Positions 1-41,805 are shown, counted from the first letter of the stretch. The stretch is 64,000 nucleotides of DNA from an uncultured Chloroflexia bacterium (GCA_963728205.1 CAVSIV010000006.1:830831-894830); one strand, 5' to 3'. Made by a program: numbers and translations. The notes: a model not told the origin generated them from the letters alone.

Positions 1-648
1 CCCGCCCTGCCAGATGGCCGCGTTCACGCCGGTCAGCGTCAGCGGCCGGTCGAACGTGCCGGGGCCGCCGGTCGGCGCCGGCGTCCCCGTGGCGGTCGCG
101 GTGGGCGTGGCCGTGGCGGTCGCCGACGGGGTCGGCGTGGCCGTCGCCACCGTCGACGGCAGCGTGATCGAGATCGTCGCGAAGTTCGAGGTCAGCCCGC
201 CGTTGGTGAACGTGAAGCCGAACGCGTCGGTGCCGATGGCGTTCGCCACCGGCGTGTACTTCACCTCGGCCGTGCAGGAGATCGACGTCGACGCGCCGCT
301 CTGCGGCACGTTCTGCGTGCACGTCACCGCCGCGATCGGCGCGAGCGTGCCCTTCGCCGGGAAGCTCGCGATCGCGAACGACGGGTCGTTCGCCGCCGCC
401 TGCTGCGACGCGTTCAGCACCACCGTGACCGGCGCCGGCGGATACGTCGACCCGATCGTGATCGACCCGTCCTGCGCGACCGGTGAGCCCGGCGCCGGCG
501 TCGCGGTCGGGGTCGCCGTCGGCGTCGCGGTGGCGGTGGCGGTCGGAGTCGGCGTGGGTGTCGGCGTCTGCGCGCCGGTCAGCGCGGGCAGCGCGACGAG
601 CAGCGCCAGCGCGACCACGGCGCCGGCGAACGGGATGCGATAGCGCAT
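1..648 (-). CDS. secreted Thr/Pro-rich surface protein, N-terminal part (gene runs off the left edge)
   Basis: ATG at 646-648 on the minus strand, then signal peptide MRYRIPFAGAVVALALLVALPALTGAQ and TP-rich linkers. It ends with the start of the shared C-terminal module (GTFDRPLTLTGVNAAIWQGG). The frame stays open to position 1. It is absent from the ORF track because there is no stop codon in the window. Confidence 0.8.
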   Translation of the reverse strand, partial: MRYRIPFAGAVVALALLVALPALTGAQTPTPTPTPTATATATPTATPTATPAPGSPVAQDGSITIGSTYPPAPVTVVLNASQQAAANDPSFAIASFPAKGTLAPIAAVTCTQNVPQSGASTSISCTAEVKYTPVANAIGTDAFGFTFTNGGLTSNFATISITLPSTVATATPTPSATATATPTATATGTPAPTGGPGTFDRPLTLTGVNAAIWQGG

Positions 649-694
649 GAGCGACTCCGAACGGCTGCCCCCGCCGAGGCAATCCTACACCCAC

Positions 695-720
695 AACGGA
701 TCAGGTTCCCGATCCGTTCC
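695..720 (-). promoter_or_regulatory. ECF-type promoter candidate (GGAAC-N17-CGTT)
   Basis: On the minus strand, GGAAC (716-720), a 17-nt spacer, then CGTT (695-698), 47 nt upstream of the ATG at 648. The same motif and spacing occur at 10311-10337 and 14047-14071. Confidence 0.45.
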
Positions 721-742
721 GCCTGGCGTGGCTCCGCGGCAG

Positions 743-873
743 CCACAGCGGCGTCAGACAGCCGCCACAGGCCGGCGCCCGCAAGGCGCCGCGGGTCGCG
801 GCCGCTCCCGTCGCCCATCTGTCGGTGCCCCTTCGGCTCCGCTCAGGGCAGGCTGAGTCTCACGCCGCTCTGG
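743..873. repeat. decayed copy of the double-hairpin palindromic (REPIN-like) element
   Basis: Left arm CCACAGCGGCGTCAGACAGCCGCC and right arm GGCTGAGTCTCACGCCGCTCTGG resemble the arms of the intact element at 2743-2913. Indels break the arm hairpins. Confidence 0.5.
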
Positions 874-1083
874 CGAATCAGGCGTCGACGGCTACCGCCG
901 ACCGCGATCGCGCAGTCCCTGAGATCAACCCCGCTGCGTCTGCCTGCTCGTGAAGGCGGTCGTGGCGGCGATCCGGACACCGAGCCGAGAAAGTCGTCCG
1001 GCCCCGGACGCGATGTGGCCAGAGGATGATCGAGCGCTTGCACAGGGCGCCCAGGTCTGACGCCTCGTTGGGCCGCGAGATGG

Positions 1084-1115
1084 TACACTGCGAGCGTGGC
1101 ACTGATGCCACGCTC
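1084..1115 (+). promoter_or_regulatory. -10-like hexamer plus palindromic operator of a TA operon
   Basis: TACACT (1084-1089) is followed by a perfect 10-4-10 palindrome GAGCGTGGCA-CTGA-TGCCACGCTC (1092-1115), 20 nt upstream of the antitoxin ATG. Confidence 0.5.
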
Positions 1116-1134
1116 CGATCGAAGGGCTCACAAG

Positions 1135-1473
1135 ATGCCGAAACGATCAGCCGCCAACTTCCACAAGCGCATGCTCGCCGCACGCATGCGGGATCCCGAG
1201 TTTCGCCAGGAGTACCAGCGTGCGCGGCGCGAGATCGACCAGGTCGATGCCGTGATCCGGCAACTTGACCGCCTTCGCGAAGAGGCCGGCATCTCGAAGG
1301 CCGCCCTCGCACGCAACATCGGCCGCGACCCGTCGAGCATCCGCCGGCTGTTCACCGCAAGCGGCAATCCCGAGCTGCTGCTCGTGGCCTCCATCGCCGA
1401 AGACCTCGACGCCGAGATCCGCGTGGTCCCACGCAAACGCGCTCGTGGGCAAGGCGATCCATCTGCGGCCTGA
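1135..1473 (+). CDS. XRE-family HTH antitoxin (HigA-like)
   Basis: 112 aa from ATG 1135 (RBS GAAGGG). HTH block ISKAALARNIGRDPSSIRRLF. It lies 33 nt upstream of a RelE/Gp49-like toxin ORF. Confidence 0.75.
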   Translation: MPKRSAANFHKRMLAARMRDPEFRQEYQRARREIDQVDAVIRQLDRLREEAGISKAALARNIGRDPSSIRRLFTASGNPELLLVASIAEDLDAEIRVVPRKRARGQGDPSAA

Positions 1474-1505
1474 CCTGCCTGCAATCAACGAACGGCCGCG
1501 CTCCG

Positions 1506-1925
1506 TTGACATGGGACACCGTCTACTACGCAGCAAGCGACGGCAGCGTGCCCGCGGCGGACTTCCTCGACCGCTGCCCGTCCCGGGTTGCTGCGACGAT
1601 CCTGGCGGTACTCGACGCCGTCGCCACCGCACCGCCGCCCCAATTCTCCGGCGGCGGCAGGTGGGAAGCCATGCACGGCGAGATGCACGGCTACTACGAA
1701 GTGCGCACGACCCGTCCCGGCCGCGAGCACTTCCGGCTGTTCTGCCTCCTCGAGAATGGCACTCCAACGGAGCTGGCTCGACGCGGACTCGACGGACCGG
1801 CGATCGCCGTGCTTACGGGAATGCGCAAGCCCTCGCGCACGACGTTCAGCGCCCACGACTACGCGGCCGTGCACCGGATCGGCGAAGACCACCGGTCGAA
1901 GTTCCCGCGTCGCCTCGCCGTCTAG
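1506..1925 (+). CDS. RelE/ParE-superfamily toxin, phage Gp49/HigB-like
   Basis: TTG start, 139 aa. WDTVYYAASDGSVPAADFL ... YYEVRTTRPGREHFRLFCLL ... AIAVLTGMRKPSRTT fits the Gp49-like toxin pattern. It is paired with the HTH gene upstream. Confidence 0.7.
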   Translation: MTWDTVYYAASDGSVPAADFLDRCPSRVAATILAVLDAVATAPPPQFSGGGRWEAMHGEMHGYYEVRTTRPGREHFRLFCLLENGTPTELARRGLDGPAIAVLTGMRKPSRTTFSAHDYAAVHRIGEDHRSKFPRRLAV

Positions 1926-2104
1926 CCGAACGGCCGGCGGTGTGAAAGTGAACCGCTGCCACCCGGCCGCCGCCCGCGGGCCAGCGGCGCCTGCGGGCGC
2001 CGACATGCGGCATCACGCGCGACATGGGTGCGCCGATCGCTCCCCTGGAGGCTTGCCGAACGAGCAAACAGCCCTCGCGGTGCGCGGGGCCAGGGTCCGC
2101 GAGT

Positions 2105-2110
2105 TATACT
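2105..2110 (+). promoter_or_regulatory. -10 hexamer positioned for a leaderless mazEF transcript
   Basis: TATACT ends 6 nt before the ATG at 2117, which leaves no room for an RBS. Confidence 0.4.
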
Positions 2111-2116
2111 GGCGGT

Positions 2117-2356
2117 ATGAAGACCGCCATCTCCCTGCCCGACGAGCTCTTCGAGGCCATGGAACAACTCGTTCGCCGCTCCGGTGGCAGCCGGAGCGAG
2201 CTGTACGCCTCCGCCCTCCGCGAGTACGTGCAGCGCCACTCGCCGGATGCGGTCACAGAGGCGATGAACGAGACCCTCCGCCAGCTGAACGGCGAGTCCG
2301 GCTACGACTTCAGCAGTACGGCAGCGCAACGCATCCTGGCGGACAGCGAGTGGTGA
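2117..2356 (+). CDS. mazE: ribbon-helix-helix antitoxin (MazE/CopG-like)
   Basis: 79 aa with N-terminus MKTAISLPDELFEAMEQLVRRSGGSRSELYASALREY. Its TGA stop overlaps the GTG of the next gene (GTGA). Confidence 0.75.
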   Translation: MKTAISLPDELFEAMEQLVRRSGGSRSELYASALREYVQRHSPDAVTEAMNETLRQLNGESGYDFSSTAAQRILADSEW

Positions 2357-2700
2357 TCTCGCAGGGCGAGATCTGGTGGGCGGACCTTCCCGCACCATCC
2401 GGGTCAGCGCCCGGCTTCCGTCGCCCCGTGCTGGTCGTCCAGGGCGACGACCTCAATCGCAGCGACCTCCGGACGGTGATCTGCGTCGCCCTCACCAGCA
2501 ACCTGCGGTGGGCAGGAGCACCGGGCAACGTCGTCCTTCCCGCCAGTACGTCCCGCCTCCCCAGGGATTCCGTGGTCAACGTCTCGCAGATCGTCACGCT
2601 CGATCGCGAGGCATTGACGGACCGGGTTGCGCGGATTCCACGACCAACGCTCGCGGTCGTGCTCGCGGGGATCGACGTCGCACTCGGAAAGCCGCGCTGA
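2353..2700 (+). CDS. mazF: PemK/MazF-family endoribonuclease toxin
   Basis: 115 aa from GTG 2353. ISQGEIWWADLP ... GFRRPVLVVQGD ... VICVALTSN ... VVNVSQIVTLD is the MazF fold signature. Confidence 0.85.
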   Translation: MISQGEIWWADLPAPSGSAPGFRRPVLVVQGDDLNRSDLRTVICVALTSNLRWAGAPGNVVLPASTSRLPRDSVVNVSQIVTLDREALTDRVARIPRPTLAVVLAGIDVALGKPR

Positions 2701-2742
2701 CCGGGGAGGTTGCCGGTCCCCCCGGCTGCCCGCCGCCGCGCG

Positions 2743-2913
2743 CCAAAGCGGCGTCAGACATGACGCCGACGGACCCGGCGGCGCGAGCCGCCTGGCGGGC
2801 CGCGATGACGCCGAGCGTCGCCTTCGGGGGAGGCGCGGGATGGTCCCCGCACCCGGGTTGGCGGCGGCCGAAGCGCCGCCGACCTGTCGGCGTCATGTCT
2901 GACGCCGCTTTGG
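2743..2913. repeat. double-hairpin palindromic element, subfamily B (REPIN-like)
   Basis: Arm CCAAAGCGGCGTCAGACATGACGCCGACGG (2743-2772) and its reverse complement (ending 2913) flank a spacer of about 110 nt. Each arm contains the hairpin CGGCGTCA-GACA-TGACGCCG. Confidence 0.85.
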
Positions 2914-3297
2914 TCGCGGGGGTATCGCCCTACTTCACGAGCACGACGACGATGTCGCCGTGGTTCGGCTCCCGCAGGCTCGAGGGGAGGCGCGGGATGG
3001 TCCCCGCACCCGGGTTGGCGGCGGCCGAAGCGCCGCCGACCTGTCGGCGTCATGTCTGACGCCGCTTTGGTCGCGGGGGTATCGCCCTACTTCGCGAGCA
3101 CGACGACGATGTCGCCGTGGTTCAGCTCCCGCAGGCTCGAGGGGAGGCGCGGGATGGTCCCCGCACCCGGGTTGGCGGCGGCCGAAGCGCCGCCGACCTG
3201 TCGGCGTCATGTCTGACGCCGCTTTGGGCGCGGGGTATCGCCCTACTTCACGAGCACGACGACGATGTCGCCGTGGTTCAGCTCCCGCAGGCTCGAG
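2828..3297. repeat. tandem triplication of a 157-bp unit (half palindromic element plus gene 3' end)
   Basis: Units start at 2828, 2985 and 3142 (157/157/156 bp, a few substitutions). Each unit contains the distal spacer, the right arm of the element, a 13-nt gap, the stop codon and the last 18 codons (SSLRE[L/P]NHGDIVVVLVK) of CDS 3243-3947. Only the third copy is joined to the gene. Confidence 0.9.
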
Positions 3298-3947
3298 ACG
3301 AAGTCCGGCGCCCCGGCGACGTACTGCCGCACCATCCCGCCCGAGACCCGGAACACGAGCTGCACCTGCCGCGGGATCGTCGCGACCGCATCCGCGATCG
3401 GCGTCGCGTCCGCGCCGTCCCACGTGAGGAGGCCGTAGCCGGACCCCGGCGGGAGCGCGCCGGTGAAGCCGCCGACCGCCACGACGTCGGTCGCCGCGGT
3501 GAGGTTCACCTGCTGCGGGGTCGTGCTCCACGTCGCGACCTGCGTCGCGGCGAGCCCCGGGTCCACCGCGCCGTACATCAGCAGGAAGCGCACGTCGTCG
3601 CCCGGCGCCGGGCAGCCGGCGTGGGTCTCCGACGACGCCACCGAGAGCATGTAGAACCCGCTGCCGGCGCCGGTCTTCGTGACGTCCGCGGTGCCGCAGA
3701 CGGCGGGCTCATGCCCCGGCGCGGCCGGACCCAGCGCGCGCACCTTCGACGGCAGCGCGCCCGACTGATCCGCGTAGACGAAACCGAAGATCGTCGACGC
3801 GCCCCCATCGGCCCGCGCGCGTCCCGCCGTCGCCGGCAGGAGCGCGCCGGCGACGAGCACCGCGGTCATGATTACCAGGATCGCCAGCGCGCGCGGACTG
3901 CGCGCAGCGCTACCGAGCCGACCGGTCCCGGCTCTCGAATCCATCAC
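3243..3947 (-). CDS. secreted hypothetical protein with the shared C-terminal module
   Basis: 234 aa with a signal peptide (ALAILVIMTAVLVAGALLPATAGRARA). The C-terminus YVAGAPDFVSSLRELNHGDIVVVLVK is related to the IPGAPAFVNA...VLVVK module of neighbouring surface proteins. Confidence 0.75.
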   Translation of the reverse strand: MMDSRAGTGRLGSAARSPRALAILVIMTAVLVAGALLPATAGRARADGGASTIFGFVYADQSGALPSKVRALGPAAPGHEPAVCGTADVTKTGAGSGFYMLSVASSETHAGCPAPGDDVRFLLMYGAVDPGLAATQVATWSTTPQQVNLTAATDVVAVGGFTGALPPGSGYGLLTWDGADATPIADAVATIPRQVQLVFRVSGGMVRQYVAGAPDFVSSLRELNHGDIVVVLVK

Positions 3948-4062
3948 ACCCGACCCCCGTCCGCCCCGGCGCAGTCGCGCGCGGAACGAGAAGATTGCGG
4001 AACCGGCCCCGCCGGCTCCCTTCCGCGTTCGACCCGTGGTCGTGTCGAGCGGGGAAGGGAGT

Positions 4063-4130
4063 CCCCGTCCCCTCCGAGGAGAGGACGGGGGTCCCGTTCA
4101 CGAACGTGCGCCGCTCGCGAGGAGCGGCGC
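4063..4130 (-). terminator. two GC-rich hairpins downstream of CDS 4148-4660
   Basis: GCGCCGCTC-GCGAG-GAGCGGCGC (4108-4130) and CCCCGTCC-N12-GGACGGGG (4063-4090) follow the stop codon on the minus strand. There is no U tract. Confidence 0.5.
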
Positions 4131-4147
4131 GCGCTCGAGCTGCGTGC

Positions 4148-4660
4148 CTAGCGGCGGCGCGTGGCGGCGCGAGCGCCACCGACCGCGATCACCGCGAAGG
4201 CGGCCAGCGCCAGCATCGAGGCGAGCCCCGTGCTGTGGCCGACCAGGAAGCCCGCGTTGCCGGTGCCGGCCGGGGCCGGAGCCGTGCTCGTGGCCGTCGG
4301 GGTCGCCGTGGCCGAGGCCGTCAGCGTGACACCGTTGGCAACGTTCGCCGGCGCGCCGCCGGCCTTGTAGGTCTCCTTGGCCGTGGTCGGGGCGCCGTTC
4401 AGCGTGAAGGTGAGCGTGTCACCGTCCGCCGGGCTGCAGGTCGCGTTGGACGCGATCTGGAGCTGCCACTGGCCGCTGGCGTCGGCCGTAGCCGTGCCGC
4501 AGGACTTGGCGCCGTCGAAGACCTCGACCTTGTCGCCGGCCTTGAGGCCGACGCCGTAGACCGTCATCGGGGGCACCTGCGCCGAGGCGATCGTCGCGAA
4601 CATCATGAGCGCGACGGCCGCGACGCCGAACGGCACCGCCATTTTCCGGAGAAGACTCAT
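4148..4660 (-). CDS. secreted protein with a C-terminal anchor-like or sorting-signal-like tail
   Basis: 170 aa from ATG 4658-4660 (RBS AAAGGAG). Signal peptide MSLLRKMAVPFGVAAVALMMFATIASAQ, then a T/P/A linker. The tail is GNAGFLVGHSTGLASMLALAAFAVIAVGGARAATRRR. Confidence 0.75.
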   Translation of the reverse strand: MSLLRKMAVPFGVAAVALMMFATIASAQVPPMTVYGVGLKAGDKVEVFDGAKSCGTATADASGQWQLQIASNATCSPADGDTLTFTLNGAPTTAKETYKAGGAPANVANGVTLTASATATPTATSTAPAPAGTGNAGFLVGHSTGLASMLALAAFAVIAVGGARAATRRR

Positions 4661-4796
4661 CTGCAAGAACTCCTTTGAGTTCTGACCCGCCCCTGGGTGG
4701 TTAGCCATCCGTCCCCCTCACGCTCGTGAGCGTCCGGCGGAGCTGGGTGGGTACGCGTGCCTCCCTCATCGCGAGATGGCCGGGAGGCGGAGACAA

Positions 4797-4833
4797 GGTT
4801 CACCCCCCGCCCCGAGAGGACGGGGGGTGAACC
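4797..4833 (-). terminator. hairpin terminator of the large surface-protein gene
   Basis: Perfect 13-bp stem GGTTCACCCCCCG / CGGGGGGTGAACC with an 11-nt loop, starting 10 nt after the TAA stop (4843-4845) on the minus strand. Confidence 0.6.
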
Positions 4834-4842
4834 GCTAGTCGC

Positions 4843-6660
4843 TTACTTGACGACGAGGACGATCGTGCCCGCCGGGACCTCGTTCGGGAAGGCGGCGTTG
4901 AACGCCGCGTTCACGAACGCCGGGGCGCCCGGGATGAGCACAACGGCCTGGCCGTTGACGAAGACCGTCACCGAGATGCCGCCCGCCGCGGAGACCGCGG
5001 ACGAGAGCTGGGCAACCGTGCCGCCGTTCCAGACCGCGGTGTTGACACCGACGTTCGGGATTGCGCGGTCAAAGGTGCCCGCGCCGGTCGTGCCGGTCGG
5101 GGTCGCCGTCGGCGTGGCCGCCGGGGCACCGACAGTGGCAACCGTCGAGTCAACGACGGAACCGGATGCGCTCGGGCACGTCGGGGCCGCAGAGGAACCG
5201 GTCTGAGCGGCGACCAAGACACTGCCCGAGGTACCGGTCAGTGCAGCCGTCGTGTTCGCCGTCCCGCTCGACGTGGTGCCGCACGCGACCGAAACAACAC
5301 CCTGGGTCGAGGGGATGTTAAAGGTCACGACGGTGCCGTTTGCGGCCATGTTGCCAGAGGCATCCACAACCGTCGCCGTCACCTTGTTGGCCGTCACTGC
5401 AGCAGTAACAGTTGCCGGCTTGCCAGCCGCCGTCACCGTCGCCGTCGCGGCCGGAACCGACGACGTCGTGATGTCAGTCGCGGTGATCGTCGCCGTGCCA
5501 AGCTGGGTGGCGGATGCGCAGTACGTGACGTACGCGTAGCCCGGCGTCCCGCTCAGCGAGGCCGTTGTCGCCGTGACCGCCTTGGCCGTAGTCGAGGTGG
5601 CCGGGGTTGCCAGACAAGCCGCGCTGGCGCCGCTCGCCAGGAAGCCCTTGTCCACCGAAACCTGCAGGAGCTGACCGTTGACGCCAGCACCCGTCGCGTC
5701 AGTGACGCGGAAAAGCACGTTCGTACCCGTGGTCGGCGACGTGTAGGACGCCGACGAGCTGCTGGCCGCAACGTTCGCGTCAGTGACCTTCACCGTCGTG
5801 AGGGTCGTCGGCGTCGTGCCGGTCGCAGCCTGCAGCGTCAGCGTCGTCGTGTCGACAGCGCTGAGCGACGGAACGGAGGCAACGATGGTGTCGCTACCCG
5901 ACGTCCCATTGCCCTTGTATGCGACCGACGCACAGCCGGTCGTCGCGTCCGTGAAGGAGCTCGCCGAGTTGGTGCCGGTCGCAACGAAGAGACCCAGGCT
6001 GCCAGTGAAGTTCACCTGCGTGGGAGCAGTGGGAACGGGCGAGACACAAGCCTTGATGGTCGACGCCTGCGCGCCGCTCGCAGCGATCGTTGCCGGGGTC
6101 GCGATGACTGAAACGGCGTTTGAGGTCGAAACAGTCAGCGCACCCGCAACCGGCGTACCGAAGGTACCAGCCGCACCGCCGCCGAGTGCGGACGTGATAT
6201 TGCCAGTGGCAGCAGTGGTGCTAATGGGCCGCACCTGAATGCCGGAGATGGTGACCGTGTCACCAGCGACATTCGCGGTAGTGGCCGTGCCGGTGGTAAT
6301 CGTGGCGGCCGCAACCGTAGCCGTTCCAGCGACGCCCGCGACTGTGCCGGTCGTGGTAACCGTCACGGTAGCCGCTGTATTGAACTCCCAGTCCGCGCTC
6401 GGCCGGGAAAGCACGATCGAGTCGCCAATCGCGATATCTCCGGTCGCACCGGTCGTGAACTTAGCGTCCGGCAGAGTCGTCCAGGCACCAGTCCCAGTCG
6501 TCGCGTTCGTTGCCAGCGAGATGGTGGCGCTGGCGGAGCTTGTCGTCGTCGCCGCCGCACTCGCCGTCCGCGCCGTTCCCGAAACGAGCAGCGCTACAGC
6601 GAGCACCAACGACGCGGCAACAGCAGAGCCGTACCACGCGTACTTCTTGAAAAGACTCAA
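4843..6660 (-). CDS. large secreted surface protein with Ig-like (Big_1-type) repeats and the shared C-terminal module
   Basis: TTG start at 6658-6660, 8 nt after GGAGGA; there is no in-frame ATG near the signal peptide LSLFKKYAWYGSAVAASLVLAVALLVSGTARTASA. 605 aa, T/A/S/G-rich, with invasin-like repeats such as VTATVVDASGNMAANGTVVTFNIPS. It ends VLIPGAPAFVNAAFNAAFPNEVPAGTIVLVVK. Confidence 0.8.
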   Translation of the reverse strand: MSLFKKYAWYGSAVAASLVLAVALLVSGTARTASAAATTTSSASATISLATNATTGTGAWTTLPDAKFTTGATGDIAIGDSIVLSRPSADWEFNTAATVTVTTTGTVAGVAGTATVAAATITTGTATTANVAGDTVTISGIQVRPISTTAATGNITSALGGGAAGTFGTPVAGALTVSTSNAVSVIATPATIAASGAQASTIKACVSPVPTAPTQVNFTGSLGLFVATGTNSASSFTDATTGCASVAYKGNGTSGSDTIVASVPSLSAVDTTTLTLQAATGTTPTTLTTVKVTDANVAASSSSASYTSPTTGTNVLFRVTDATGAGVNGQLLQVSVDKGFLASGASAACLATPATSTTAKAVTATTASLSGTPGYAYVTYCASATQLGTATITATDITTSSVPAATATVTAAGKPATVTAAVTANKVTATVVDASGNMAANGTVVTFNIPSTQGVVSVACGTTSSGTANTTAALTGTSGSVLVAAQTGSSAAPTCPSASGSVVDSTVATVGAPAATPTATPTGTTGAGTFDRAIPNVGVNTAVWNGGTVAQLSSAVSAAGGISVTVFVNGQAVVLIPGAPAFVNAAFNAAFPNEVPAGTIVLVVK

Positions 6661-7142
6661 AGCAGTTGTCCTCCAATTGAGAACGTTGTCACTCGATAAC
6701 ACGCACTTCGATTCTCTGCGATGCCTCCTCTCGCCGCGTCCGGCTCCTCCGTGAGGGGGAGCGCCCCGTTCCTGGCAGAACGGCGGCCGGCGAGCCTTCT
6801 TTCCAAGCGGTGCTGATACCGCCGCTCGAGCAAAACGCCACCAGCGCCGCTCGAAATCACGCTCGCTGCGAACCTTCGAAATCCGCGACGGGCGGCGTGG
6901 TCCAAGACACACACCTCACGCCACGAGACTTAGAACGCCCCCGGGCAAGACTGAGTTAACAGCGGGGGTGGGCCTGATACGCAGTAAAGAGGTAACCGGG
7001 CAAGACGAGTGGCGCGACCTGACGAACGCCCGCAGGTCGATCCCCTATCGGGAGCGCGCTAGCCGGTGACCGCGCGATCGGCGACGATCGTCCAAGCATT
7101 GATCTCAGCACGACGCCGGCGCACCTGAAGGAAGCGGCTGCC

Positions 7143-7748
7143 ATGACGAACTCAAACCACCGACGCGCCGAGTCAGACGCGACCGCCGCGTTCGGCGGCA
7201 ACGGTCAGCCGGACGGACCGCGTCGCTGGTTTCGTGGACCATGGGGCGTGGTCGCGGCCGGTGGACTGATTACGGCAGTGCTTGCCGCCACGCTCGTGAT
7301 CCTGCTTCCGCGGGGCGATCACTCCCGCGAACCCGCGAAGACGACCACCCCAGTCGCGCATGTCGTTACCGGTGGCATTGGGGACCCACTTCGCGTCGGA
7401 TCGCTCGCCCTGAGGGTGATCGAAGTCAACGCGGCCTTCGATGGTAGCCACTATGCACCCGCGAACACCGCTACCTCCGCCGTCCATATCGCAGTGACTA
7501 ACGCAGGAGATACCGGCAATCCCATTCAGCTGGCGACAAAGGACTTTCGCCTGATCGACGAAGATGCAGGCGGCCATGGAACCGTGGGTTGCGCGCAATG
7601 TCCCGCGGTGATCGGCAACGTCAATCAGCTCGTTCCTAACGGCGGGATCGACGGGTGGTTGTACTTCGCGTTGCCCGCGGGAACGACAGCCAGCCAACTC
7701 GTCTACACCGGAGCTACCGGGATCACGGCCACGATCACGCTCCGCTAG
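7143..7748 (+). CDS. membrane-anchored hypothetical protein (DUF4352-like beta domain, tentative)
   Basis: 201 aa with one TM helix (WGVVAAGGLITAVLAATLVILL) followed by a beta-rich domain. Third-position GC is visibly lower than in neighbouring genes. Confidence 0.65.
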   Translation: MTNSNHRRAESDATAAFGGNGQPDGPRRWFRGPWGVVAAGGLITAVLAATLVILLPRGDHSREPAKTTTPVAHVVTGGIGDPLRVGSLALRVIEVNAAFDGSHYAPANTATSAVHIAVTNAGDTGNPIQLATKDFRLIDEDAGGHGTVGCAQCPAVIGNVNQLVPNGGIDGWLYFALPAGTTASQLVYTGATGITATITLR

Positions 7749-7759
7749 GCGAAGCGAAC

Positions 7760-8878
7760 CTACGGGGCCACGGCGTCGGGCGGGACAGTACCAACCGCCC
7801 GCGTCGCCGAGGGCACCACCGTCGCGGGCGCCGTCGAACTCGATGCCGCGGTTCCTCTCCCGTTCGGGGTCCCCGACGGACTCGCCGCTGGGGTGAGAGC
7901 ATCGGTTGTGGCCGGTATGGCGGTCCCCGTCGCCTGTACCGTCGCCGTCACCGTGCTTGTCGGCGTTTCGGTGGTGTCGGCCGTCGGCGTCTCCGTCGCA
8001 GTTACCTCGGACGTCGGCGTCGCCGTCTCCGTCGCCTCGGGCGTCGCCGTCGCCGTCTCCGTCGCCACAGGCGTCCCGGCGTCCCCGTGCGACTCGAGGT
8101 AGCGCGCCGCGGTCACGACGCCCTGGTCGGCCGTCACCTGCGCGGCGCTCAGCGCACCCTCGGCGCCCGCCTCGGGCTTCGCCGTCTGCAGCACCTGCCG
8201 GCTCTGGTTCGCGGCGCGCGCGTACTGCGCGACGGTGCCGGGGTCGACGCGCTCGGGCTGCGCGGCGATCTGCTGCTGCACCGAGGCGTTGTCCTCGGTC
8301 ACGCGGCGGAGGAGGTCGGTCTGCACGGGCACGCCGCGCTGCGTGTTGCTCGCGATCTCGGCGAGCGTGGTCTGCAGCCGTGCGAGCTGCGCGTCGAGCG
8401 AGCGCGGGGTCTGGTTCTCGACGGTCGGGCCGGTCGCCAGCTGCGGCGTGCCGGAAAGGCCGCCGCCGGCGAAGGCGGTGAAGGTGATCGCCGCGGCGGC
8501 GGCCGCGGCGGCCATCGGCGCGAACACCGAGACGACGCGGGTGCGCAGGCGGCGCCGGCGCTCGGCCGCGAGCGACACGGGCGCGCGCTCCATGCGGTGC
8601 AGGATCGCGGCGCGCGAGCGGGCGCGGTAGGAGTCGAAGGCGGGGCCATCGGTGGCGTCGGCGAAGAGGTGCTGGAGGACGGCGGCGGTCTGGACGAGGC
8701 CGGCGAGCGCGGGGTCTTCGCGCGGATCGACGTCGGGCTCGCGACCGGACGCGAGCTCCTCGAGCGCCTCGTCCAGGCGCTGGGCCTCGGCCAGGTCGGC
8801 GGCGTCCCCGGTGAAGAGGGGGTCCCCCCGCCGGGTATCCCCGGCGTCGAAGGAGTGCAGCGGCTGGTCTGCCGACAT
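7760..8878 (-). CDS. anti-sigma-factor-like membrane protein
   Basis: 372 aa from ATG 8876-8878 with a single TM helix (VVSVFAPMAAAAAAAAITFTAFAGG) and a T/E/A/P-rich extracytoplasmic tail. It lies downstream of the ECF sigma gene on the same strand. No zf-HC2 motif was seen. Confidence 0.65.
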   Translation of the reverse strand: MSADQPLHSFDAGDTRRGDPLFTGDAADLAEAQRLDEALEELASGREPDVDPREDPALAGLVQTAAVLQHLFADATDGPAFDSYRARSRAAILHRMERAPVSLAAERRRRLRTRVVSVFAPMAAAAAAAAITFTAFAGGGLSGTPQLATGPTVENQTPRSLDAQLARLQTTLAEIASNTQRGVPVQTDLLRRVTEDNASVQQQIAAQPERVDPGTVAQYARAANQSRQVLQTAKPEAGAEGALSAAQVTADQGVVTAARYLESHGDAGTPVATETATATPEATETATPTSEVTATETPTADTTETPTSTVTATVQATGTAIPATTDALTPAASPSGTPNGRGTAASSSTAPATVVPSATRAVGTVPPDAVAP

Positions 8879-9112
8879 CTCCGACCCGTTCCGGGCCGCC
8901 CACGCGTGGGGCGGCCACACTGTGCCGGTGAGTCGCCGGGCGGCTTGCGCCGGCCGCGCGCCATCGGGGCTGGCGGAGCATCGTCGGTGGCGCCGTGCCG
9001 TGGGTTCGCCCTGCGGCGACTGGCCCCCGCCAGGCTCGGCGGTCCGCGATGATCCTCTCGTGGTCTGCGCGACCGGCGGGCGTTAGGCCCGGGGGTCGCC
9101 TGCTGGTGGCGT

Positions 9113-9330
9113 CAGCAGCGGGCGGTACGCCCGCTGTGCGCCTGTGTGCGGCGGGCCGTGGCCCGCTGTGCGCCTGGCAGCGGGCGGGACGCCCGCTGTG
9201 CGCCTGTGTGCGGCGGGCCGTGGCCCGCTGTGCGCCTGGCAGCGGGCGGGACGCCCGCTGTGCGCCTGGGCAGCGGGCCTACCGCCCGCTGTGCGCCTGG
9301 CAGCGGGCGATACGCCCGCTGTGCGCCTGG
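9113..9330. repeat. tandem array of seven hairpin units between the sigma and anti-sigma genes
   Basis: Units of 29-33 bp. Each is a hairpin, either CAGCGGGCG-NNN-CGCCCGCTG or GCGGGCC-GT-GGCCCGC, followed by TGCGCCTGG. The first four units form two 62-bp higher-order repeats. There are no spacers. Confidence 0.9.
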
Positions 9331-9356
9331 GTCGCGGACGGACGTCCGCGGCGTTC

Positions 9357-10232
9357 CTACTGGTCCGCGCTCCGCACCCAACTGGGCTCGGGGCGCGTGT
9401 CGCGGAGGATCTGCTTCAGGCGCTGCACGCCCTTGTGCTGCAGCACCTTGACGTTGCCCTGCTGCTTCCCGAGCGCCTCGGCCGTTTCCGCGACGGAGAG
9501 GCCGGCGCCGAATCGCAGGCGAATCACGTCGCGCTGCGCTTCGGGGAGCAGTTCGACCGCGTCAAAGACCTCCTCGATCGTCAACTGCGTCTCGGCGAGG
9601 TCCTGCGGGCCGCGGCGCTCGTCCGCGATCCAGTCCGGGACCTCGGCGCCCGGGTCGTCCTTCACCACGCGGCGATGGACGGTGGCCCGGCGGTGGAACG
9701 AGACGACGTGGTTGTGAGCGATGCGGAACAGCCAGGCCGCGAAGGGGCTGCGCTCCCCCGCGCCGATGTCCCGCCACTCGAACCCGTCGACCGCCCCCAG
9801 GACCTTGAGGAAGATCTCTTCCGCGAGGTCCTCCGCGTCCGTCTCGTTGCCGACGCGCGCCAGGCAGTAGCGATACAGCCTGGTGACGTACGCGTCGTAC
9901 AGGAGGCCTACCGCCTCCAGGTCTCCGTGAGCGGCACGCTGCACGTACTCGCGCTCGACGGCGACGGACAGCTGGTTCGGATTCGACGGCGCTGGTCTCG
10001 CGGGATCCCCCGTTCGTCGCGGGGAGTCGGCAGCGGGATCGGCGCCCTCGGCGTGTGGCGAGATGTCTGCCACCGGGCTTCCCTTCGCGCCGGCCCCCGC
10101 TGCGACCGGCCCCGGTGGGCCGTCCAGTGCATCGGGATCGCGGGACGGGCTCCCCGCACCGGCATGACCGGGGAGGTGCGCGTCCGCACGAGTATAGGTG
10201 GCCTGCGCCAAGGGGAGAGGTGTGTCGGACAT
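9357..10232 (-). CDS. ECF (sigma-70 family) RNA polymerase sigma factor
   Basis: 291 aa from ATG 10230-10232. Region 2 (LYRYCLARVGNETDAEDLAEEIFLKV, FAAWLFRIAHNHVVSFHRR) and region 4 (LPEAQRDVIRLRFGAGLSVAETAEALGKQQGNVKVLQHKGVQRLK) are present. It has a P/A/G-rich N-terminal extension of about 95 aa. Confidence 0.9.
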   Translation of the reverse strand: MSDTPLPLAQATYTRADAHLPGHAGAGSPSRDPDALDGPPGPVAAGAGAKGSPVADISPHAEGADPAADSPRRTGDPARPAPSNPNQLSVAVEREYVQRAAHGDLEAVGLLYDAYVTRLYRYCLARVGNETDAEDLAEEIFLKVLGAVDGFEWRDIGAGERSPFAAWLFRIAHNHVVSFHRRATVHRRVVKDDPGAEVPDWIADERRGPQDLAETQLTIEEVFDAVELLPEAQRDVIRLRFGAGLSVAETAEALGKQQGNVKVLQHKGVQRLKQILRDTRPEPSWVRSADQ

Positions 10233-10310
10233 CTCCCACCGCACTATCAACAACGGTACGGACCGTGACCGGGTTAACGGGGGGCGCAGGCGCGGGGGCC
10301 GCATGAGGTG

Positions 10311-10337
10311 TAACGAAGGCGGAGGGGGATTCGTTCC
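10311..10337 (-). promoter_or_regulatory. ECF-type promoter candidate upstream of the sigma gene (autoregulation)
   Basis: On the minus strand, GGAAC (10333-10337), spacer GAATCCCCCTCCGCCTT (17 nt), then CGTTA (10311-10315). It sits between the NYN stop codon and the sigma ATG. Confidence 0.5.
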
Positions 10338-10370
10338 GGGGCGGTTTGCATGGCGCGCGGTCACGCGCCT

Positions 10371-10982
10371 TTACCAGCTCGCTGGCTTCGAGAAGGTCCC
10401 CGTGGCGTCCGTGAGTGTGGTCGGGAACTGACTTGCGGAGAGGACCCCCGCGCGAATCGGTTTGTAGAAGGTCGAGACGTTCCGCAGATCGTACGCCTGC
10501 TTCTTGTGGGGGTTCAGCAGTCCCACCGGCAGCCGCAGGTCATTCATCACGAGCTCAATCGGCGTCTTGAGGTCGGAGTCGTTGGAGATGACGACCGCCT
10601 GTTCGAACCCTCCACGATGCGCATCGTGGAGCGGGTGGCTGGCCAGATTCACGTCGGAGCCCTTCTCCTCGGTGTCATGGACCCACACGTATCCGCCTCC
10701 GTTCACGAGGGGGCGGGACTTCTGCTTTGCGAGGAAGCGCCCGAGGTAGACCGTGACGCACGGAATGTCGCAAGGGCCCGCAGGTCGATCTGTTGTCGCT
10801 GGGCCGCCTGCGGGTCCGACGGGCGGCTGGTCACGGGTGCTGTGAAGTAGCGGATGCGCTGAACTTGATGGCCGGGGAAGCAGGTGCCGGCACAGCGTCT
10901 CGATGTCGATCCACTTGTACACGGTGCCCTTCAGGGCGCCGTAGTACAGGTTGAAACCGTCCACGTACACATTCGTGCGCAT
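10371..10982 (-). CDS. NYN (LabA/PIN-like) domain protein with an internally frame-swapped segment
   Basis: The 203-aa frame is open. MRTNVYVDGFNLYYGALKG and EEKGSDVNLA ... VVISNDSDL ... LLNPHK are NYN-like. About 37 codons (10765-10877) are read in a non-conserved frame. The +1 frame over that stretch encodes the expected GHQVQRIRYFTAPVTSRPSDPQAAQRQQIDLRALAT. Confidence 0.7.
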   Translation of the reverse strand: MRTNVYVDGFNLYYGALKGTVYKWIDIETLCRHLLPRPSSSAHPLLHSTRDQPPVGPAGGPATTDRPAGPCDIPCVTVYLGRFLAKQKSRPLVNGGGYVWVHDTEEKGSDVNLASHPLHDAHRGGFEQAVVISNDSDLKTPIELVMNDLRLPVGLLNPHKKQAYDLRNVSTFYKPIRAGVLSASQFPTTLTDATGTFSKPASW

Positions 10983-11306
10983 AGGCAGAGACCCCCGTCA
11001 CCGGGGGTCTCGCGCCCAGCGGCCGAGGCCACTGGGGGGATATCGGGATCGATCCTGACCCGCCCCGGTCAACATGTCACGCGAGAACGGCCAACAACTA
11101 CCCGCAAATGTGGTGGCCGGGTCCGCCCGCAGCGAAAGCTACCAGCGTTCCTCGCGCGACCGGCACGACACCTGCGGATTTGCAGGGGCGTGCCCGCAAT
11201 CCAGACGGTGCTAGGAAGGGGCCGGCGAGCGAGGATCGCATGCGAACCGCCGTCGGGCCGACCGGCGGCGCGCAGAGCCAACGGGCGGCCACGGGAGTGT
11301 GCGTGT

Positions 11307-11328
11307 TACGATGTATTGCGCTGCAATA
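11307..11328 (+). promoter_or_regulatory. -10-like hexamer plus AT-rich palindromic operator
   Basis: TACGAT (11307-11312), then TATTGC-GCT-GCAATA (11314-11328), just upstream of RBS GCGAGG and the ATG at 11341. Confidence 0.45.
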
Positions 11329-11340
11329 AGCGAGGCCGCG

Positions 11341-11763
11341 ATGCCCCAATCGACCATGAGCCTCCGTCTCGACGACGAGCTGCGCACCCGCCTCGCCGAT
11401 GCCGCCACGCAGGCGGGGACGACCGTCACGGCGCTGGTCGACCGCTTCGTGCGCGAGGGCCTCGCCCTGGACGGCCACCCCGGCATCACGTTCAAGCCCG
11501 GGCCGTCCGGGCGGCGCGCGGCGCTCGCCGGCGGGCCCGACGTCTGGGAGGTGGTAGCCGCGCTGCGCGACGTCGCGGGGACCGGGTCGCAGCGGGTCGC
11601 CGCGCTGGCGGCGCAGTTCGGCATCCACGAGCGCCAGGTCGTCGCGGCGCTCGACTACGCAGCCGCGCACCGCGACGAAGTGGAGGCACGGGTCCGCGCG
11701 AACGACCGTGCGCTCGAGGAGGCGGAGCGCGTGGCCCTCGAACGGGGGCGCCTGCTCGCGTGA
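11341..11763 (+). CDS. antitoxin-like protein (RHH N-terminus plus DUF433-like domain)
   Basis: 140 aa. MSLRLDDELRTRLADAA is RHH-like. ITFKPGPSGRRAALAGGPDVWEVV ... VAALDYAAAHRDEV is DUF433-like. Its stop codon overlaps the GTG of the next gene. Confidence 0.7.
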   Translation: MPQSTMSLRLDDELRTRLADAATQAGTTVTALVDRFVREGLALDGHPGITFKPGPSGRRAALAGGPDVWEVVAALRDVAGTGSQRVAALAAQFGIHERQVVAALDYAAAHRDEVEARVRANDRALEEAERVALERGRLLA

Positions 11764-12092
11764 AGTTCCTCGTCGACGGGATGCTCCCGCCGGCGGTCGC
11801 GGACCTCCTGAACGCCTCCGGGCACGACGCGGTCACCCCGGCCGACCTGGGCGCCCACAGCCTTCCCGACGACGTGCTGGTCCGGCTGGCGACGGCGGAG
11901 GCGCGCGTGATCGTCACCGAGAACGCAAGCGACTTCGCCCGCGTCGCGACGTGCCCGGTGCTGTTCGTCCGCAAGTCATGGTGGCCGACGGGCGCGCTCG
12001 CGGAGGGGCTGGCGCGCTCGCTCGACCGATGGGCGACGGCGCATCCCGACCCCGGGCCGTGGCCGCACTGGCTCGAGTCGACGGAGCGCTGA
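11760..12092 (+). CDS. DUF5615 / Mut7-C PIN-like putative toxin
   Basis: 110 aa from GTG 11760 (GTGA overlap). VKFLVDGMLPPAVADLLNASGHDAV ... VIVTENASDFARV is typical of DUF5615 partners of DUF433 proteins. Confidence 0.7.
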   Translation: MKFLVDGMLPPAVADLLNASGHDAVTPADLGAHSLPDDVLVRLATAEARVIVTENASDFARVATCPVLFVRKSWWPTGALAEGLARSLDRWATAHPDPGPWPHWLESTER

Positions 12093-12117
12093 CCGATCGC
12101 CCGGGGAAGGTGGGCGG

Positions 12118-12213
12118 CGGCGTGGTCACGGGGCGGCGTGGTCGCCAGGGTCGTGGGGTCACGGGGTCGTGGCGTCACGGGGGTCACGGGGTCGTGGGGT
12201 CACGGGGTCGCGC
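12118..12213. repeat. short tandem repeat (about 16-bp unit CGTGGGGTCACGGGGT, about 5.5 copies)
   Basis: Read directly from the sequence. It is intergenic, between the DUF5615 stop codon and the vapB promoter region. Confidence 0.8.
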
Positions 12214-12288
12214 GTTGATCCTCAGCCCGCTCACGCGGCGGCCGTTCGCCGTGGCGTAACTCGAGTCGGTCCGCGGCCACGCGCCTGA

Positions 12289-12317
12289 ATGGTAGAATCG
12301 CCATACGCGATGGTAGA
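12289..12317 (+). promoter_or_regulatory. vapBC promoter/operator candidate
   Basis: TAGAAT (12293-12298) is embedded in a direct repeat of ATGGTAGA (12289-12296 and 12310-12317, 21 nt apart), upstream of RBS GAGGTG and the ATG at 12343. Confidence 0.4.
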
Positions 12318-12342
12318 CGCGGACCCGAGGTGCGACGTGAGC

Positions 12343-12594
12343 ATGAACATCAAGAGCGAGGACGCACACCGACTCGCCCGCGAGTTGGCGTCGCTGACAG
12401 GCGAGAGCGTCACCGCTGCCGTGACGGAGGCCCTGCGCGAGCGCCTCGAGCGCGTTCGCCGCGAGCGGGGCGAAGAGACGCTCGCCGACCGGTTGGCCGC
12501 TATCTGCCGAGCATCCGCGCCACACTTCCGGGAGGGGTTCCGGTCCGCCAATCATGCCGACCTCCTGTACGACCAGCGCGGCCTGCCGCGGTGA
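12343..12594 (+). CDS. vapB: VapB-family antitoxin
   Basis: 83 aa. MNIKSEDAHRLARELASLTGESVTAAVTEALRERLERV is the typical VapB N-terminus. Its TGA stop overlaps the GTG of vapC. Confidence 0.85.
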   Translation: MNIKSEDAHRLARELASLTGESVTAAVTEALRERLERVRRERGEETLADRLAAICRASAPHFREGFRSANHADLLYDQRGLPR

Positions 12595-12986
12595 TCCTCG
12601 AGACCTCCGCGCTTCTCGCGATGCTGCTCGACGAGCCGGACGCCGAGGCGTATCAGCGGGCGATCGACGCTGCGTCGACGCGGCGGATATCCGCGGGCAC
12701 GCTGCTCGAGACGTGCATCGTGGTGGACGGCAACGGCGATGCGGTCGCCGGTCGCCTCCTCGACAATCTCCTCGCCGCAGCGGGGGTCGCGGTTGAGCCG
12801 GTCACGGTGGAGCAGGTGCGCATCGCGCGCGCCGCCTACCGCGACTTCGGCCGGGGAAGCGGTCATCCGGCGCGCCTGAACTTCGGTGACTGCTTCGCGT
12901 ATGCGCTCGCCAGGGCCACCGGCGAGCCGCTGCTGTTCAAGGGCGAGGACTTCGCGCAAACCGACCTCCGCTCCGCGCTGACCTAG
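12591..12986 (+). CDS. vapC: PIN-domain ribonuclease toxin VapC
   Basis: 131 aa from GTG 12591. VILETSALLAMLLDEPD ... ISAGTLLETCIVV ... LNFGDCFAYALA carries the PIN acidic residues. Confidence 0.9.
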   Translation: MILETSALLAMLLDEPDAEAYQRAIDAASTRRISAGTLLETCIVVDGNGDAVAGRLLDNLLAAAGVAVEPVTVEQVRIARAAYRDFGRGSGHPARLNFGDCFAYALARATGEPLLFKGEDFAQTDLRSALT

Positions 12987-12993
12987 CGCGCAA

Positions 12994-13091
12994 CCACAGC
13001 GGCGGCAGACATGCCGCCGACAGAACGCGGACGCCAGTCTGCGCGGCCGGCGCCGGGGCGCCTGTCGGCGGCATGTCTGCCGCCGCTGTGG
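12994..13091. repeat. double-hairpin palindromic element, subfamily A (REPIN-like)
   Basis: Arm CCACAGCGGCGGCAGACATGCCGCCGACAG and its reverse complement flank a 38-nt near-palindromic spacer. It lies 8 nt after the vapC stop and about 105 nt after the convergent stop at 13196. Confidence 0.9.
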
Positions 13092-13195
13092 TTCATGGGG
13101 TGGCCCGCGCACAGAAAGTGGGCGGGCCGCCCCGGGAGAGGCGGCCCGCCTGCGAAGCGGTCGGACGGCGGGCCGGTCCGCCCGCGCGCGCTTCG

Positions 13196-13999
13196 CTACT
13201 TGACGACCAGCACGATCGTGCCGGCGGGAACGGTCGAGGGATACGTCGCGTTGAACTCGGCGTTCACGAACGCCGGGGCGCCGGGGATCAGCACCTGGGC
13301 CTTGCCGTTGACGAAGACCGTCACCGAGATGCCCTGCGCCGCGAGCGTCGCGGACGCCATCTGCTGCACGGTGCCGCCCTGCCAGATCACGGGGTTGACG
13401 CCGACCGTGTCGATCGGGCGGTCGAACTTGCCGAGCAGGTTGACCGCAAGCGCGCTCAGGCTCGTGACGTCGGCGACGTCGTTCGTGCCGTTGGAGACCG
13501 TCGCGTCGCCGTCGAGCGAGATGCCGATCGTGCCGGAGGCGGTGTCGGCGGTGTCGGGCTGCACCTTGATGCCGGACAGCATGAGCGTGTCACCGGCGGC
13601 GGAGCCGGTGGTCACGTTCAGCACGATCTCGTGCTGCGTCGGGGTGACGGTGCCGGTGGCGGCGCCGCCGATCTGGAGCGTGCCGGTGCCGCCGACGGTG
13701 TAGGTGACCGGGGCGGAGGTGTCGAACGACCAGCCGGTCGGGGCCTCGATCTTGATGCCGTTGGCGGTGGTCATCTCGTTGCCGGTCGCCGTGATCGTGA
13801 TCGGCGTGAGCGCCGTGAAGGTGTTGGCGCCGGTCGCGGCGTTGGTCGTCGGCTGGATCACGGCGTCGGCGCGCGTGGTCACCGTCGGCGCCGCGGCCTG
13901 CGCGAGGCCGGGCGCGGCCGCGAGGAGCATGCCGGCCGAGGCCGCGAGTGCAGCGATGGCGGCGCCTCCGCGCCAGGTCCAGGTGCGCAGTCTGCTCAT
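13196..13999 (-). CDS. secreted surface protein with the shared C-terminal module
   Basis: 267 aa from ATG 13997-13999 (RBS GGAGAGGA). Signal peptide GGAAIAALAASAGMLLAAAPGLAQA. It ends GKFDRPIDTVGVNPVIWQGG ... VLIPGAPAFVNAEFNATYPSTVPAGTIVLVVK. Confidence 0.85.
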   Translation of the reverse strand: MSRLRTWTWRGGAAIAALAASAGMLLAAAPGLAQAAAPTVTTRADAVIQPTTNAATGANTFTALTPITITATGNEMTTANGIKIEAPTGWSFDTSAPVTYTVGGTGTLQIGGAATGTVTPTQHEIVLNVTTGSAAGDTLMLSGIKVQPDTADTASGTIGISLDGDATVSNGTNDVADVTSLSALAVNLLGKFDRPIDTVGVNPVIWQGGTVQQMASATLAAQGISVTVFVNGKAQVLIPGAPAFVNAEFNATYPSTVPAGTIVLVVK

Positions 14000-39274: not shown

Positions 39275-39438
39275 GACGGGTCGCTCCCTCCCCCGCGCCT
39301 TCCCCGGGCGCGGCGGGGCGCGGGGCGCGGTGCTCCTCGACGGTACGCGCCGGACAATCGTGCAGTCAGCGACGGGCTGCGGGGCAGTCGGGAAGACCCG
39401 CGTCGCGCGTCGCGCCGCGGCGGGCGCGCAGCCGCAGA

Positions 39439-41214: not shown

Positions 41215-41577
41215 CGCGCGCTGCTCTCTTCCCCCGGCAGCGCGGGAGGCTAGCACGCCCGCCCGGCCCCCGCGAGACCGCGGTGGGAGGTCGGTCGACG
41301 CGGCGGGACGCGCGTGAATCCGCGTGCCGGCGGGATGCGAGGGAACTGCAAGGCGCCGACCGGCGATGCGTGTAAGTCGGCCGAGCGACTTCACGTCTCA
41401 TTAAGCAGAGCGAATCGGCGCGGTTCGATCCGCTCGTCGCACCCCGGTCCCCGAGACGACGGCAACGACGTGGAGCCGGCGCGTGTTTCGCGCGCTCGGA
41501 GGGTTTCGCGTTCCCGACGCCGCCGGTGATCAAGCGGGGTGGGCAGCAAGCAGTGGGTCGGTGGAAAGGAGGTGAGG

Positions 41578-41805
41578 ATGCATCGTTGGCGACGGCTGCT
41601 TGCGATCGGTTCGGTACCGGTCGCGGGCCTGATCCTCGTCACGAGCGCGATCGCGGCGAGACCGCCGGACAACCAGAAGGTCTCTGTCTGCCACGTGACG
41701 GGACAGGGCACGTTCAGGGAGATCTCCGTCTCCGAGCGAGCCCTTCCCGCCCTCGAGGCGCACGGCGACGTCGTGGCGAACGAGTTCGGGTACTGCCCGA
41801 GCTAA
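41578..41805 (+). CDS. small secreted protein (two Cys)
   Basis: 75 aa from ATG 41578, preceded by the strongest RBS in the window (AAGGAGGTGA). Signal peptide MHRWRRLLAIGSVPVAGLILVTSAIAA. Confidence 0.7.
   Translation: MHRWRRLLAIGSVPVAGLILVTSAIAARPPDNQKVSVCHVTGQGTFREISVSERALPALEAHGDVVANEFGYCPS

Follow-up and report, generated by a model that had tools for sequence, protein, structure and literature searches.

The question raised by this locus is why several secreted proteins with little else in common should share one short C-terminal module. The stretch analyzed (the window) comprises 64,000 nucleotides of DNA from an uncultured Chloroflexia bacterium (GCA_963728205.1 CAVSIV010000006.1:830831-894830) with a G+C content of ~73%, and it contains four such genes (A to D) within 14 kb, together with a fifth (E) in which two copies of the module are internal. 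The module forms an autonomous alpha/beta domain of 70-78 residues outside the cytoplasm and belongs to a large lineage-restricted family that is absent from curated profile libraries and whose confident predicted structure has no recognisable relative; retention of proteins in the cell envelope is the role that we modestly favour.

Gene A (1..648, minus strand) loses its 3' end at the window edge, and its translation runs from a signal-like N-terminus through a TPTPTPTATATA linker, a beta-rich passenger and a second Thr/Pro/Ala-rich (T/P/A) linker to the start of the module, of which only the first ~20 residues are present (GTFDRPLTLTGVNAAIWQGG, nucleotides 1-60, minus strand). Gene D (3243..3947, minus strand; 234 aa) has a signal-like N-terminus, a passenger unrelated to the others, and a divergent form of the module as its last 76 residues (3246-3473, minus strand), extending up to the stop codon. 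Gene B (4843..6660, minus strand; ~605 aa) also begins with a signal-like N-terminus, followed by a long Thr/Ala-rich beta passenger, a ATPTATPTGTTGAG linker, and the module as its last 78 residues (4846-5079, minus strand). The product of gene C (13196..13999, minus strand; 267 aa) is identical to database protein P0007 and has a signal-like N-terminus and a passenger, with the module again forming the last 78 residues (13199-13432, minus strand). Gene E (32190..33488, plus strand) encodes an N-terminal signal or anchor, an SH3b domain (~32415-32576, plus strand; Pfam SH3_3, just under the cut-off), module copies at 32622-32846 and 32901-33131 (both plus strand), and a YuiC/MltA-like 3D domain (~33315-33458, plus strand), the last assigned by Foldseek and by a Pfam 3D match just under the cut-off. 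All five proteins open with a hydrophobic signal-like segment, as read by eye. Genes B and C have an N-terminal passenger domain in common (38% identity over 132 aa) and the passengers of A and D are unrelated to it, so that the module is the sole element common to all.

The open reading frames (ORFs) and sequences of the four proteins agree with a first-pass annotation made from the DNA alone, which had described them as a family sharing a C-terminal module. That annotation also placed a Thr/Pro-rich linker directly before the module, which is so in A and B and not in C and D, and it called the passengers immunoglobulin-like (Ig-like) or beta-rich, the former label being supported by sub-threshold matches only. 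Weak matches of DUF2345, New_glue and Big_9 to passengers in the window were taken as low-complexity noise.

The shared module is real, and is not a chance or compositional effect. A profile hidden Markov model (HMM) constructed from family members outside the window (the external-only HMM) was run on 846 six-frame segments of the window, and recovered the modules of gene B (E 9.8e-26), gene C (E 5.3e-22) and gene D (E 7.8e-9), together with copies 1 and 2 of gene E (E 7.7e-13 and 9.6e-18), with no further match among these segments. The similarity noted at first pass, including the divergent form in gene D and the two internal copies in gene E, thus survives both a proper alignment and an independent profile. 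With an HMM built from the window copies, the gene A fragment aligns to positions 2-27 (E 0.015), and the only extra matches in the six-frame translation are two short pseudo-fragments of 39 codons each, at 2933-3049 and 3090-3206.

The gene A region (1-648) has long open frames on both strands with G+C at third codon positions (GC3) above 0.9, and a simple GC3 gene finder chose the wrong strand for gene A and missed genes B and C entirely. The antisense ORF over gene A (14-643) has high GC3, yet encodes low-complexity sequence only; antisense frames are open over genes A, B and C because Thr/Ala/Pro-rich coding sequence reads open in antisense.

An AlphaFold2 model of the gene C module, computed from a nine-sequence alignment, has a predicted local distance difference test score (pLDDT) of 96.3 and a predicted template modelling score (pTM) of 0.84, and consists of a strand (12-20), a helix (22-31), a hairpin (36-41/44-48), a second helix (54-63) and a final strand (68-77). 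In the AlphaFold model of gene E (pLDDT 83.7) both module copies are confident, and have the same core as in gene C with the second helix replaced by a loop. The core of the domain is a strand, a helix, a hairpin, a GAPxFVN loop or helix, and a strand, and it is considered autonomous because the model is confident, the same unit recurs in gene E, and members of the family carry 1, 2 or 5 copies at varied positions.

The module has no named domain, as had been reported at first pass. Searches of Pfam, NCBIfam and the PDB sequences gave no match on the module, either in the window proteins, in other members, or in 25 diverse copies searched singly, and no structure was matched by Foldseek at E<=0.001, either in the PDB (best E 0.26, best TMq 0.39, among 50 hits listed) or in BFVD (best E 0.45). 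A new fold is thus a possibility and not a result, as only 50 Foldseek hits were listed, without coordinates. LysM, PG_binding, SH3b and AMIN were rejected as its identity, since such domains adjoin the module and never overlap it. SLH, with three tandem ~55-aa helical repeats, and CWB2, with three tandem ~90-aa repeats, were also rejected; neither gave a Pfam match, and the module is alpha/beta and ~75 aa in length.

The order of the structural elements recalls SPOR (PF05036), a domain of RlpA, FtsN, DamX and DedD that recognises denuded glycan strands at sites of division, and SPOR was therefore tested directly. SPOR resembles the module in its length of ~70 aa, its frequent C-terminal position, the strand-helix-strand-strand-helix-strand order seen in the C-terminal module subtype, and a 'G-x-W ... 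hydrophobic ... G-P' pattern from hairpin to loop; moreover, RlpA joins a double-psi beta-barrel (DPBB) lytic transglycosylase to SPOR, as gene E joins the module to a double-psi-barrel-type lytic-transglycosylase-like domain. Nonetheless, hhalign comparison with the SPOR domains of E. coli FtsN, RlpA, DamX and DedD returned a probability of 0.1%, whereas two-sequence SPOR profiles used as a positive control find each other at 86-95%, and SPOR identity was rejected. Pfam SPOR gave no match at E<=1 in the window proteins or at E<=10 in the 25 diverse modules, and there is no SPOR or ferredoxin-like structure among the 50 Foldseek hits listed for the module. Unlike SPOR, the wall-enzyme subtype of the module lacks the second helix. 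The strand order may differ as well: pseudolikelihood covariation (MAFFT alignment, effective number of sequences ~280) gives weak signals of 3.3x for strand pair 1-4, 2.4x for 2-3, 2.2x for 2-4 and 0.9x for 1-3, favouring 1-4, 4-2 and 2-3 as neighbours, which would fit a 1-4-2-3 sheet somewhat better than the 4-1-3-2 arrangement seen in SPOR and in ferredoxin-like folds. A mean-field direct coupling analysis run on an alignment from hmmalign reflected mainly indel and register artefacts, and its output was set aside.

Module alignments used as queries in word-indexed searches for homologues gave 4 and 2 matches only, and by such a search a Chloroflexi metagenome-assembled genome encodes the closest named homologue to the proteins of the window. 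The family came into view when 1.84 billion representative proteins were searched exhaustively with a profile, giving 836 clusters (50% identity) at E<=1e-3, of which 214 pass E<=1e-10. Members range from 87 aa to adhesin-like giants of 5,146 aa, and 89 of the 148 top members have an N-terminal hydrophobic signal-like segment. Architectures were determined for 151 proteins (the top 150 hits and one cluster member), the commonest being a C-terminal tandem pair (61/151), mostly in proteins of 900-5,146 aa. A single copy lies no more than 20 residues from the C-terminus in 46, in 33 of which the last residue of the domain is that of the protein; a tandem pair is followed by another domain in 39, three proteins have three or more copies, and in two a lone copy is followed by more than 20 residues. 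Five copies are present in P0005 and in P0006, the latter combining them with a Kelch propeller. The strictly C-terminal position claimed at first pass therefore applies to the four proteins in the window and not to the family at large, in which the module is at the protein end in 110/151 and more than 20 aa lie beyond the last copy in 41/151.

Three sequence subtypes can be distinguished. The single C-terminal form (i), to which genes A-D belong, follows the pattern GxFDR...VW.GG...ISVTVFV.G...LIPGAPAFVNA.FNA.FP...GTIVLVVK/R. The tandem form of the giant proteins (ii) starts with ECLRGE..GFSL, ends with TPLV.RSEGPP, and has two conserved cysteines per copy, and the wall-enzyme form (iii), including gene E, starts with PP.GGLT.G and ends in RR. 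Only the G-A-P motif is nearly invariant, and it mostly lies within YI.GAP.FVN.

The taxonomic range was scanned with a degenerate DNA pattern for [YL]IxGAPxFVN across bacteria and archaea, each species being represented by one genome; this yielded at least 119 loci, and the family profile confirms 84 of those listed. Among the matches listed, 83 of the 84 confirmed loci are in ~40 Chloroflexota assemblies, labelled as Dehalococcoidia, Tepidiformaceae, 'Chloroflexi bacterium' and one Thermoflexus, with the first two predominating; the other, L073 (Thermoanaerobaculia), was rejected as a chance match produced by the search pattern itself. The 35 listed loci without a confirmed module comprise 34 from other phyla and one from the Dehalococcoidia (L033). 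Judged by sequence matching, the family is confined to the Chloroflexota among the matches listed. At least 13 module loci are present in a single 3.3-Mb genome (OZ244720.1), and two module genes within 8 kb of each other are common among the loci listed. The window itself very probably derives from a high-G+C member of the same group.

For Sec-exported proteins of peptidoglycan-containing Chloroflexota, the most likely role of the module is to hold them in the envelope. More specifically, we judge the chances to be slightly better than even that it is a non-covalent envelope-retention domain binding the wall or a wall polymer, similar in function to SLH and CWB2 and unrelated to them. The N-terminal signal peptide would export the protein, one module or a tandem pair would dock in the wall, on peptidoglycan or an attached polymer, and the linker and variable passenger, such as adhesin-like repeats, lyases or proteases, would extend outward; in gene E and in SH3b-module-DD-carboxypeptidase proteins the module would target the substrate alongside SH3b. 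The CWB2 (PF04122, Clostridioides difficile) and SLH (PF00395, Bacillus and Clostridia) families are composed of Sec-exported paralogues with one non-covalent anchoring module at one terminus and adhesins, proteases or wall hydrolases as passengers; their genes are often clustered, and their hosts are monoderms with a surface layer (S-layer). A C-terminal module behind mutually unrelated passengers matches this pattern. The differences are that the module mostly occurs in one or two ~75-aa copies and not in three repeats, and that its family is found, among the matches listed, in Chloroflexota only.

Every recognisable partner domain of the module is extracellular. The giant proteins contain cadherin, LRR, Kelch, fn3, Big_9 and DUF11 repeats, and across 68 members of intermediate size the partners seen most often are SH3_3 (12), Cadherin-like (9), Big_9 (4), CAP (4) and 3D (4), whereas Peptidase_M23, matrixin, and polysaccharide or pectate lyases are represented by one case each. 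The co-occurrence with peptidoglycan-binding and -cleaving domains, which the first-pass annotation took from gene E, extends to further fusions with Peptidase_S11, Peptidase_M23, 3D, LysM, AMIN-like and SH3_3 domains. An SH3_3-module-Peptidase_S11 (DD-carboxypeptidase) arrangement is identified by Pfam match at two loci (L003 and L022), six further loci have the same ORF length and module position, and other loci carry AMIN-like or LysM domains.

The SH3b-module-module-3D arrangement is itself a conserved family, including gene E and at least 11 homologues. Foldseek matches the C-terminal domain of gene E to the YuiC structures 4wli and 4wlk (E about 1e-3, with 8e-4 for 4wli; probability 1.0, 26% identity) and also to MltA, and the N-terminal domain to SH3b wall-binding domains. 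With the Pfam 3D profile, gene E reaches 19.3 bits and its homologue P0022 reaches 22.1 bits, both short of the 23.8 cut-off, and the 3D call consequently rests on structure; on the modelled fold, the catalytic domain is predicted to be a 3D / YuiC-MltA-like lytic transglycosylase. The likeness to the YuiC/MltA/3D stationary-phase lytic transglycosylases is limited to this C-terminal domain, and no PDB structure matched to the gene E model spans the two modules between SH3b and 3D. Variants of the gene E family include P0018, P0022 and P0045, and P0079, P0092, P0040 and P0015. Some variants have an extra N-terminal domain of ~190 aa with conserved Cys and His that is possibly NlpC/P60- or CHAP-like, and others have CAP/SCP in place of the 3D domain with the tandem modules kept.

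Some members contain a polysaccharide lyase, a pectate lyase or adhesin-type repeats, as might be expected were the module a carbohydrate-binding module (CBM) for environmental polysaccharides or host surfaces. Most partners, however, are not glycan-degrading, the module is also present in housekeeping-type wall enzymes, and no CBM family or fold matched it, making this role decidedly improbable.

The extreme C-terminal position in 110 of the 151 proteins, and the diversity of the cargo, giant proteins included, would also be compatible with a sorting or secretion signal for a dedicated machinery, perhaps cleaved, comparable to the C-terminal domain (CTD) of the type IX secretion system (T9SS) or to sortase signals. 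We regard this as very improbable, given that the module is found at internal and N-terminal positions and as tandem duplications, and that the proteins have N-terminal signal-like segments. Proteins with the C-terminal form finish in a beta strand (...IVLVVK), lacking a hydrophobic helix or basic tail, and T9SS CTD (Por_Secre_tail, TIGR04183), CTERM and LPXTG were rejected with no Pfam or NCBIfam match on the module. A sortase-like partner was sought among neighbouring genes, and no conserved neighbour was found across 84 loci, where the neighbours are mainly further giant surface proteins, which speaks against a dedicated enzyme for processing that is gene-linked. Moreover, Tepidiforma, a related genus in culture, has no outer membrane to cross.

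Retention in the envelope is also suggested by gene F (4148..4708, minus strand; 186 aa), which lies between D and B and encodes a secreted protein with an Ig-like passenger, and in which neither the window-copy nor the external-only HMM finds a module. It ends instead in a T/P/A linker, PAGTGNAGF, a hydrophobic helix and RRR, a tripartite, sorting-signal-like arrangement that has no match to the NCBIfam CTERM or LPXTG models. The gene F passenger (aa 41-130) is present twice in the five-module protein P0005 (BLASTP 52% identity, E 6e-25), where the first copy is directly upstream of a module. The same passenger is found in both proteins, and the module and the membrane tail are thus alternative C-terminal ends. 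This swap favours an anchor over a purely structural or oligomerisation base with no specific envelope ligand, such as a folding nucleus, stalk cap or dimerisation unit. Variation in copy number and position (N-terminal, internal or C-terminal), and the lack of similarity to any binding domain, are compatible with such a base, but the module also recurs, more as an anchor would, at the very end of proteins, preceded by flexible T/P/A linkers and unrelated passengers, and does so in small single-passenger proteins too; a structural base is improbable.

Tepidiforma has a membrane, ~20 nm of peptidoglycan and a tetragonal S-layer, with no outer membrane (PMC10284905), and with such thick peptidoglycan beneath an S-layer, retention in the wall is physically plausible. 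The first-pass annotation had proposed anchoring in either the cell wall or the S-layer; the anchoring part is strengthened by the added wall-enzyme fusions and by the anchor swap of gene F, with the function itself inferred and the two sites not separable. Docking to the tetragonal S-layer lattice or another envelope protein, or oligomerisation, would position adhesins and enzymes at the S-layer; this is unlikely on present evidence, although it deserves serious consideration. The p4 S-layer of Tepidiforma includes unexplained protein complexes ~9 nm apart on both faces (PMC10284905), the five-module proteins P0005 and P0006 exist, the modules are acidic, and tandem pairs are their commonest form. 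Fusions to DD-carboxypeptidase, lytic-transglycosylase-like, M23, LysM and AMIN-like domains, on the other hand, point to the wall, and the accessible portions of the preprint identifying the Tepidiforma S-layer proteins, and of its supplement, describe no anchoring.

Several observations weigh against binding of the wall by the module. Known wall-binding domains show no similarity to it in fold or sequence, and the wall enzymes already carry SH3b, such that the role of the module there could differ. The modules carry a net negative charge (means of -1.6 to -4.9), unlike many binders of anionic wall polymers, and some copies in giant proteins are N-terminal or internal. Scans of viral contigs with the DNA pattern and a type-iii alignment gave chance matches only and the module was not found, so that phage endolysins provide no support for wall binding. 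Finally, evidence from association does not discriminate between peptidoglycan, a secondary polymer and the S-layer as ligand, and S-layer docking or protein-protein assembly would account for most of the same architectures, if less well for the fusions to wall enzymes.

The envelope of the Chloroflexota is poorly understood, with peptidoglycan in the Dehalococcoidia reportedly demonstrated as late as 2023, and no report was found in the literature on retention of surface proteins between membrane, wall and S-layer in this phylum. The module offers a handle on this retention and picks out a large group of probable envelope proteins together with several wall-remodelling enzymes. It would also fill a gap in the domain databases, as these proteins are currently 'hypothetical' or annotated by their passenger repeats only, and at ~75 aa it lends itself to binding assays, to structure determination, and to service as a display tag in thermophilic Chloroflexota. 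A broader proposal, which we hold tentatively and at rather less than even odds, is that the module is a structurally new, Chloroflexota-specific anchor that defines the surface proteome of the peptidoglycan-containing Dehalococcoidia and recognises a lineage-specific feature of their wall. In Tepidiforma sacculi diaminopimelic acid and lysine were not detected, and Thr, Ala and Pro dominate the hydrolysate (PMC10284905). Module proteins, being Thr/Ala/Pro-rich and Lys/Arg-poor, might themselves constitute the trypsin-resistant wall-bound material of Tepidiforma.

The end of gene D is included in a tandem repeat (2827..3297, minus strand) with three copies of a 157-nt unit, each composed of the final 13 gene D codons, the stop codon, and a structured intergenic element resembling repetitive extragenic palindromic (REP) sequences. 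The pseudo-fragments at 2933-3049 and 3090-3206 are two dead C-terminal fragments of gene D, with the sequence ...SSLRE(L/P)NHGDIVVVL(A/V)K followed by a stop. The downstream non-genic copies of the unit are 99% identical to each other, and the gene-end copy is 66% identical to them. The repeat is a by-product and no functional part of the module.

The REP-like palindrome, GTCGGCG(T/G)CATGTCTG(A/C)CGCCGC, has 17 matches in the window at <=3 mismatches, with 0 expected. The elements are located at 2748, 2886, 3043, 3200, 12999/13064, 14133/14197, 15016/15080, 17864/17955, 35006/35031, 53244 and 55140/55199, and are mostly intergenic inverted pairs separated by 25-90 nt. For the element following gene D the folding energy is -63 kcal/mol (z = -4.0), and no Rfam family was matched anywhere in the window.

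Between module genes B and C there is an extracytoplasmic function (ECF) sigma factor gene (9357-10304, minus strand), followed by a gene for a 386-aa protein (7760-8920, minus strand) with a Thr/Pro/Ala/Glu-rich C-terminal half and no Pfam match, which is possibly an anti-sigma factor. A divergent secreted DUF4352 protein (7143-7748, plus strand) is encoded beside the ECF sigma and 386-aa genes. Toxin-antitoxin-like genes are dense at 1096-2700 and 10371-12986. The former region contains a helix-turn-helix protein (1096-1473) and a possible PemK-like ORF (near 2350-2700), and the latter an NYN-domain protein (10371-10982), a DUF5615/PIN_10 protein with a small partner ORF ahead of it (11311-12092), and a VapB(Rv0623-like)/VapC PIN pair (12289-12986).

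An open frame of 1425 codons is present at 37364-41638 (minus strand), of which only the last ~560 codons look coding, the long Arg/Ala-rich upstream part being an artefact of the high G+C. The frame was rejected as an S-layer gene, since its coding part specifies a beta-helix-like protein with a twin-arginine signal (TRRALLRRAAAAA) and no Pfam match.

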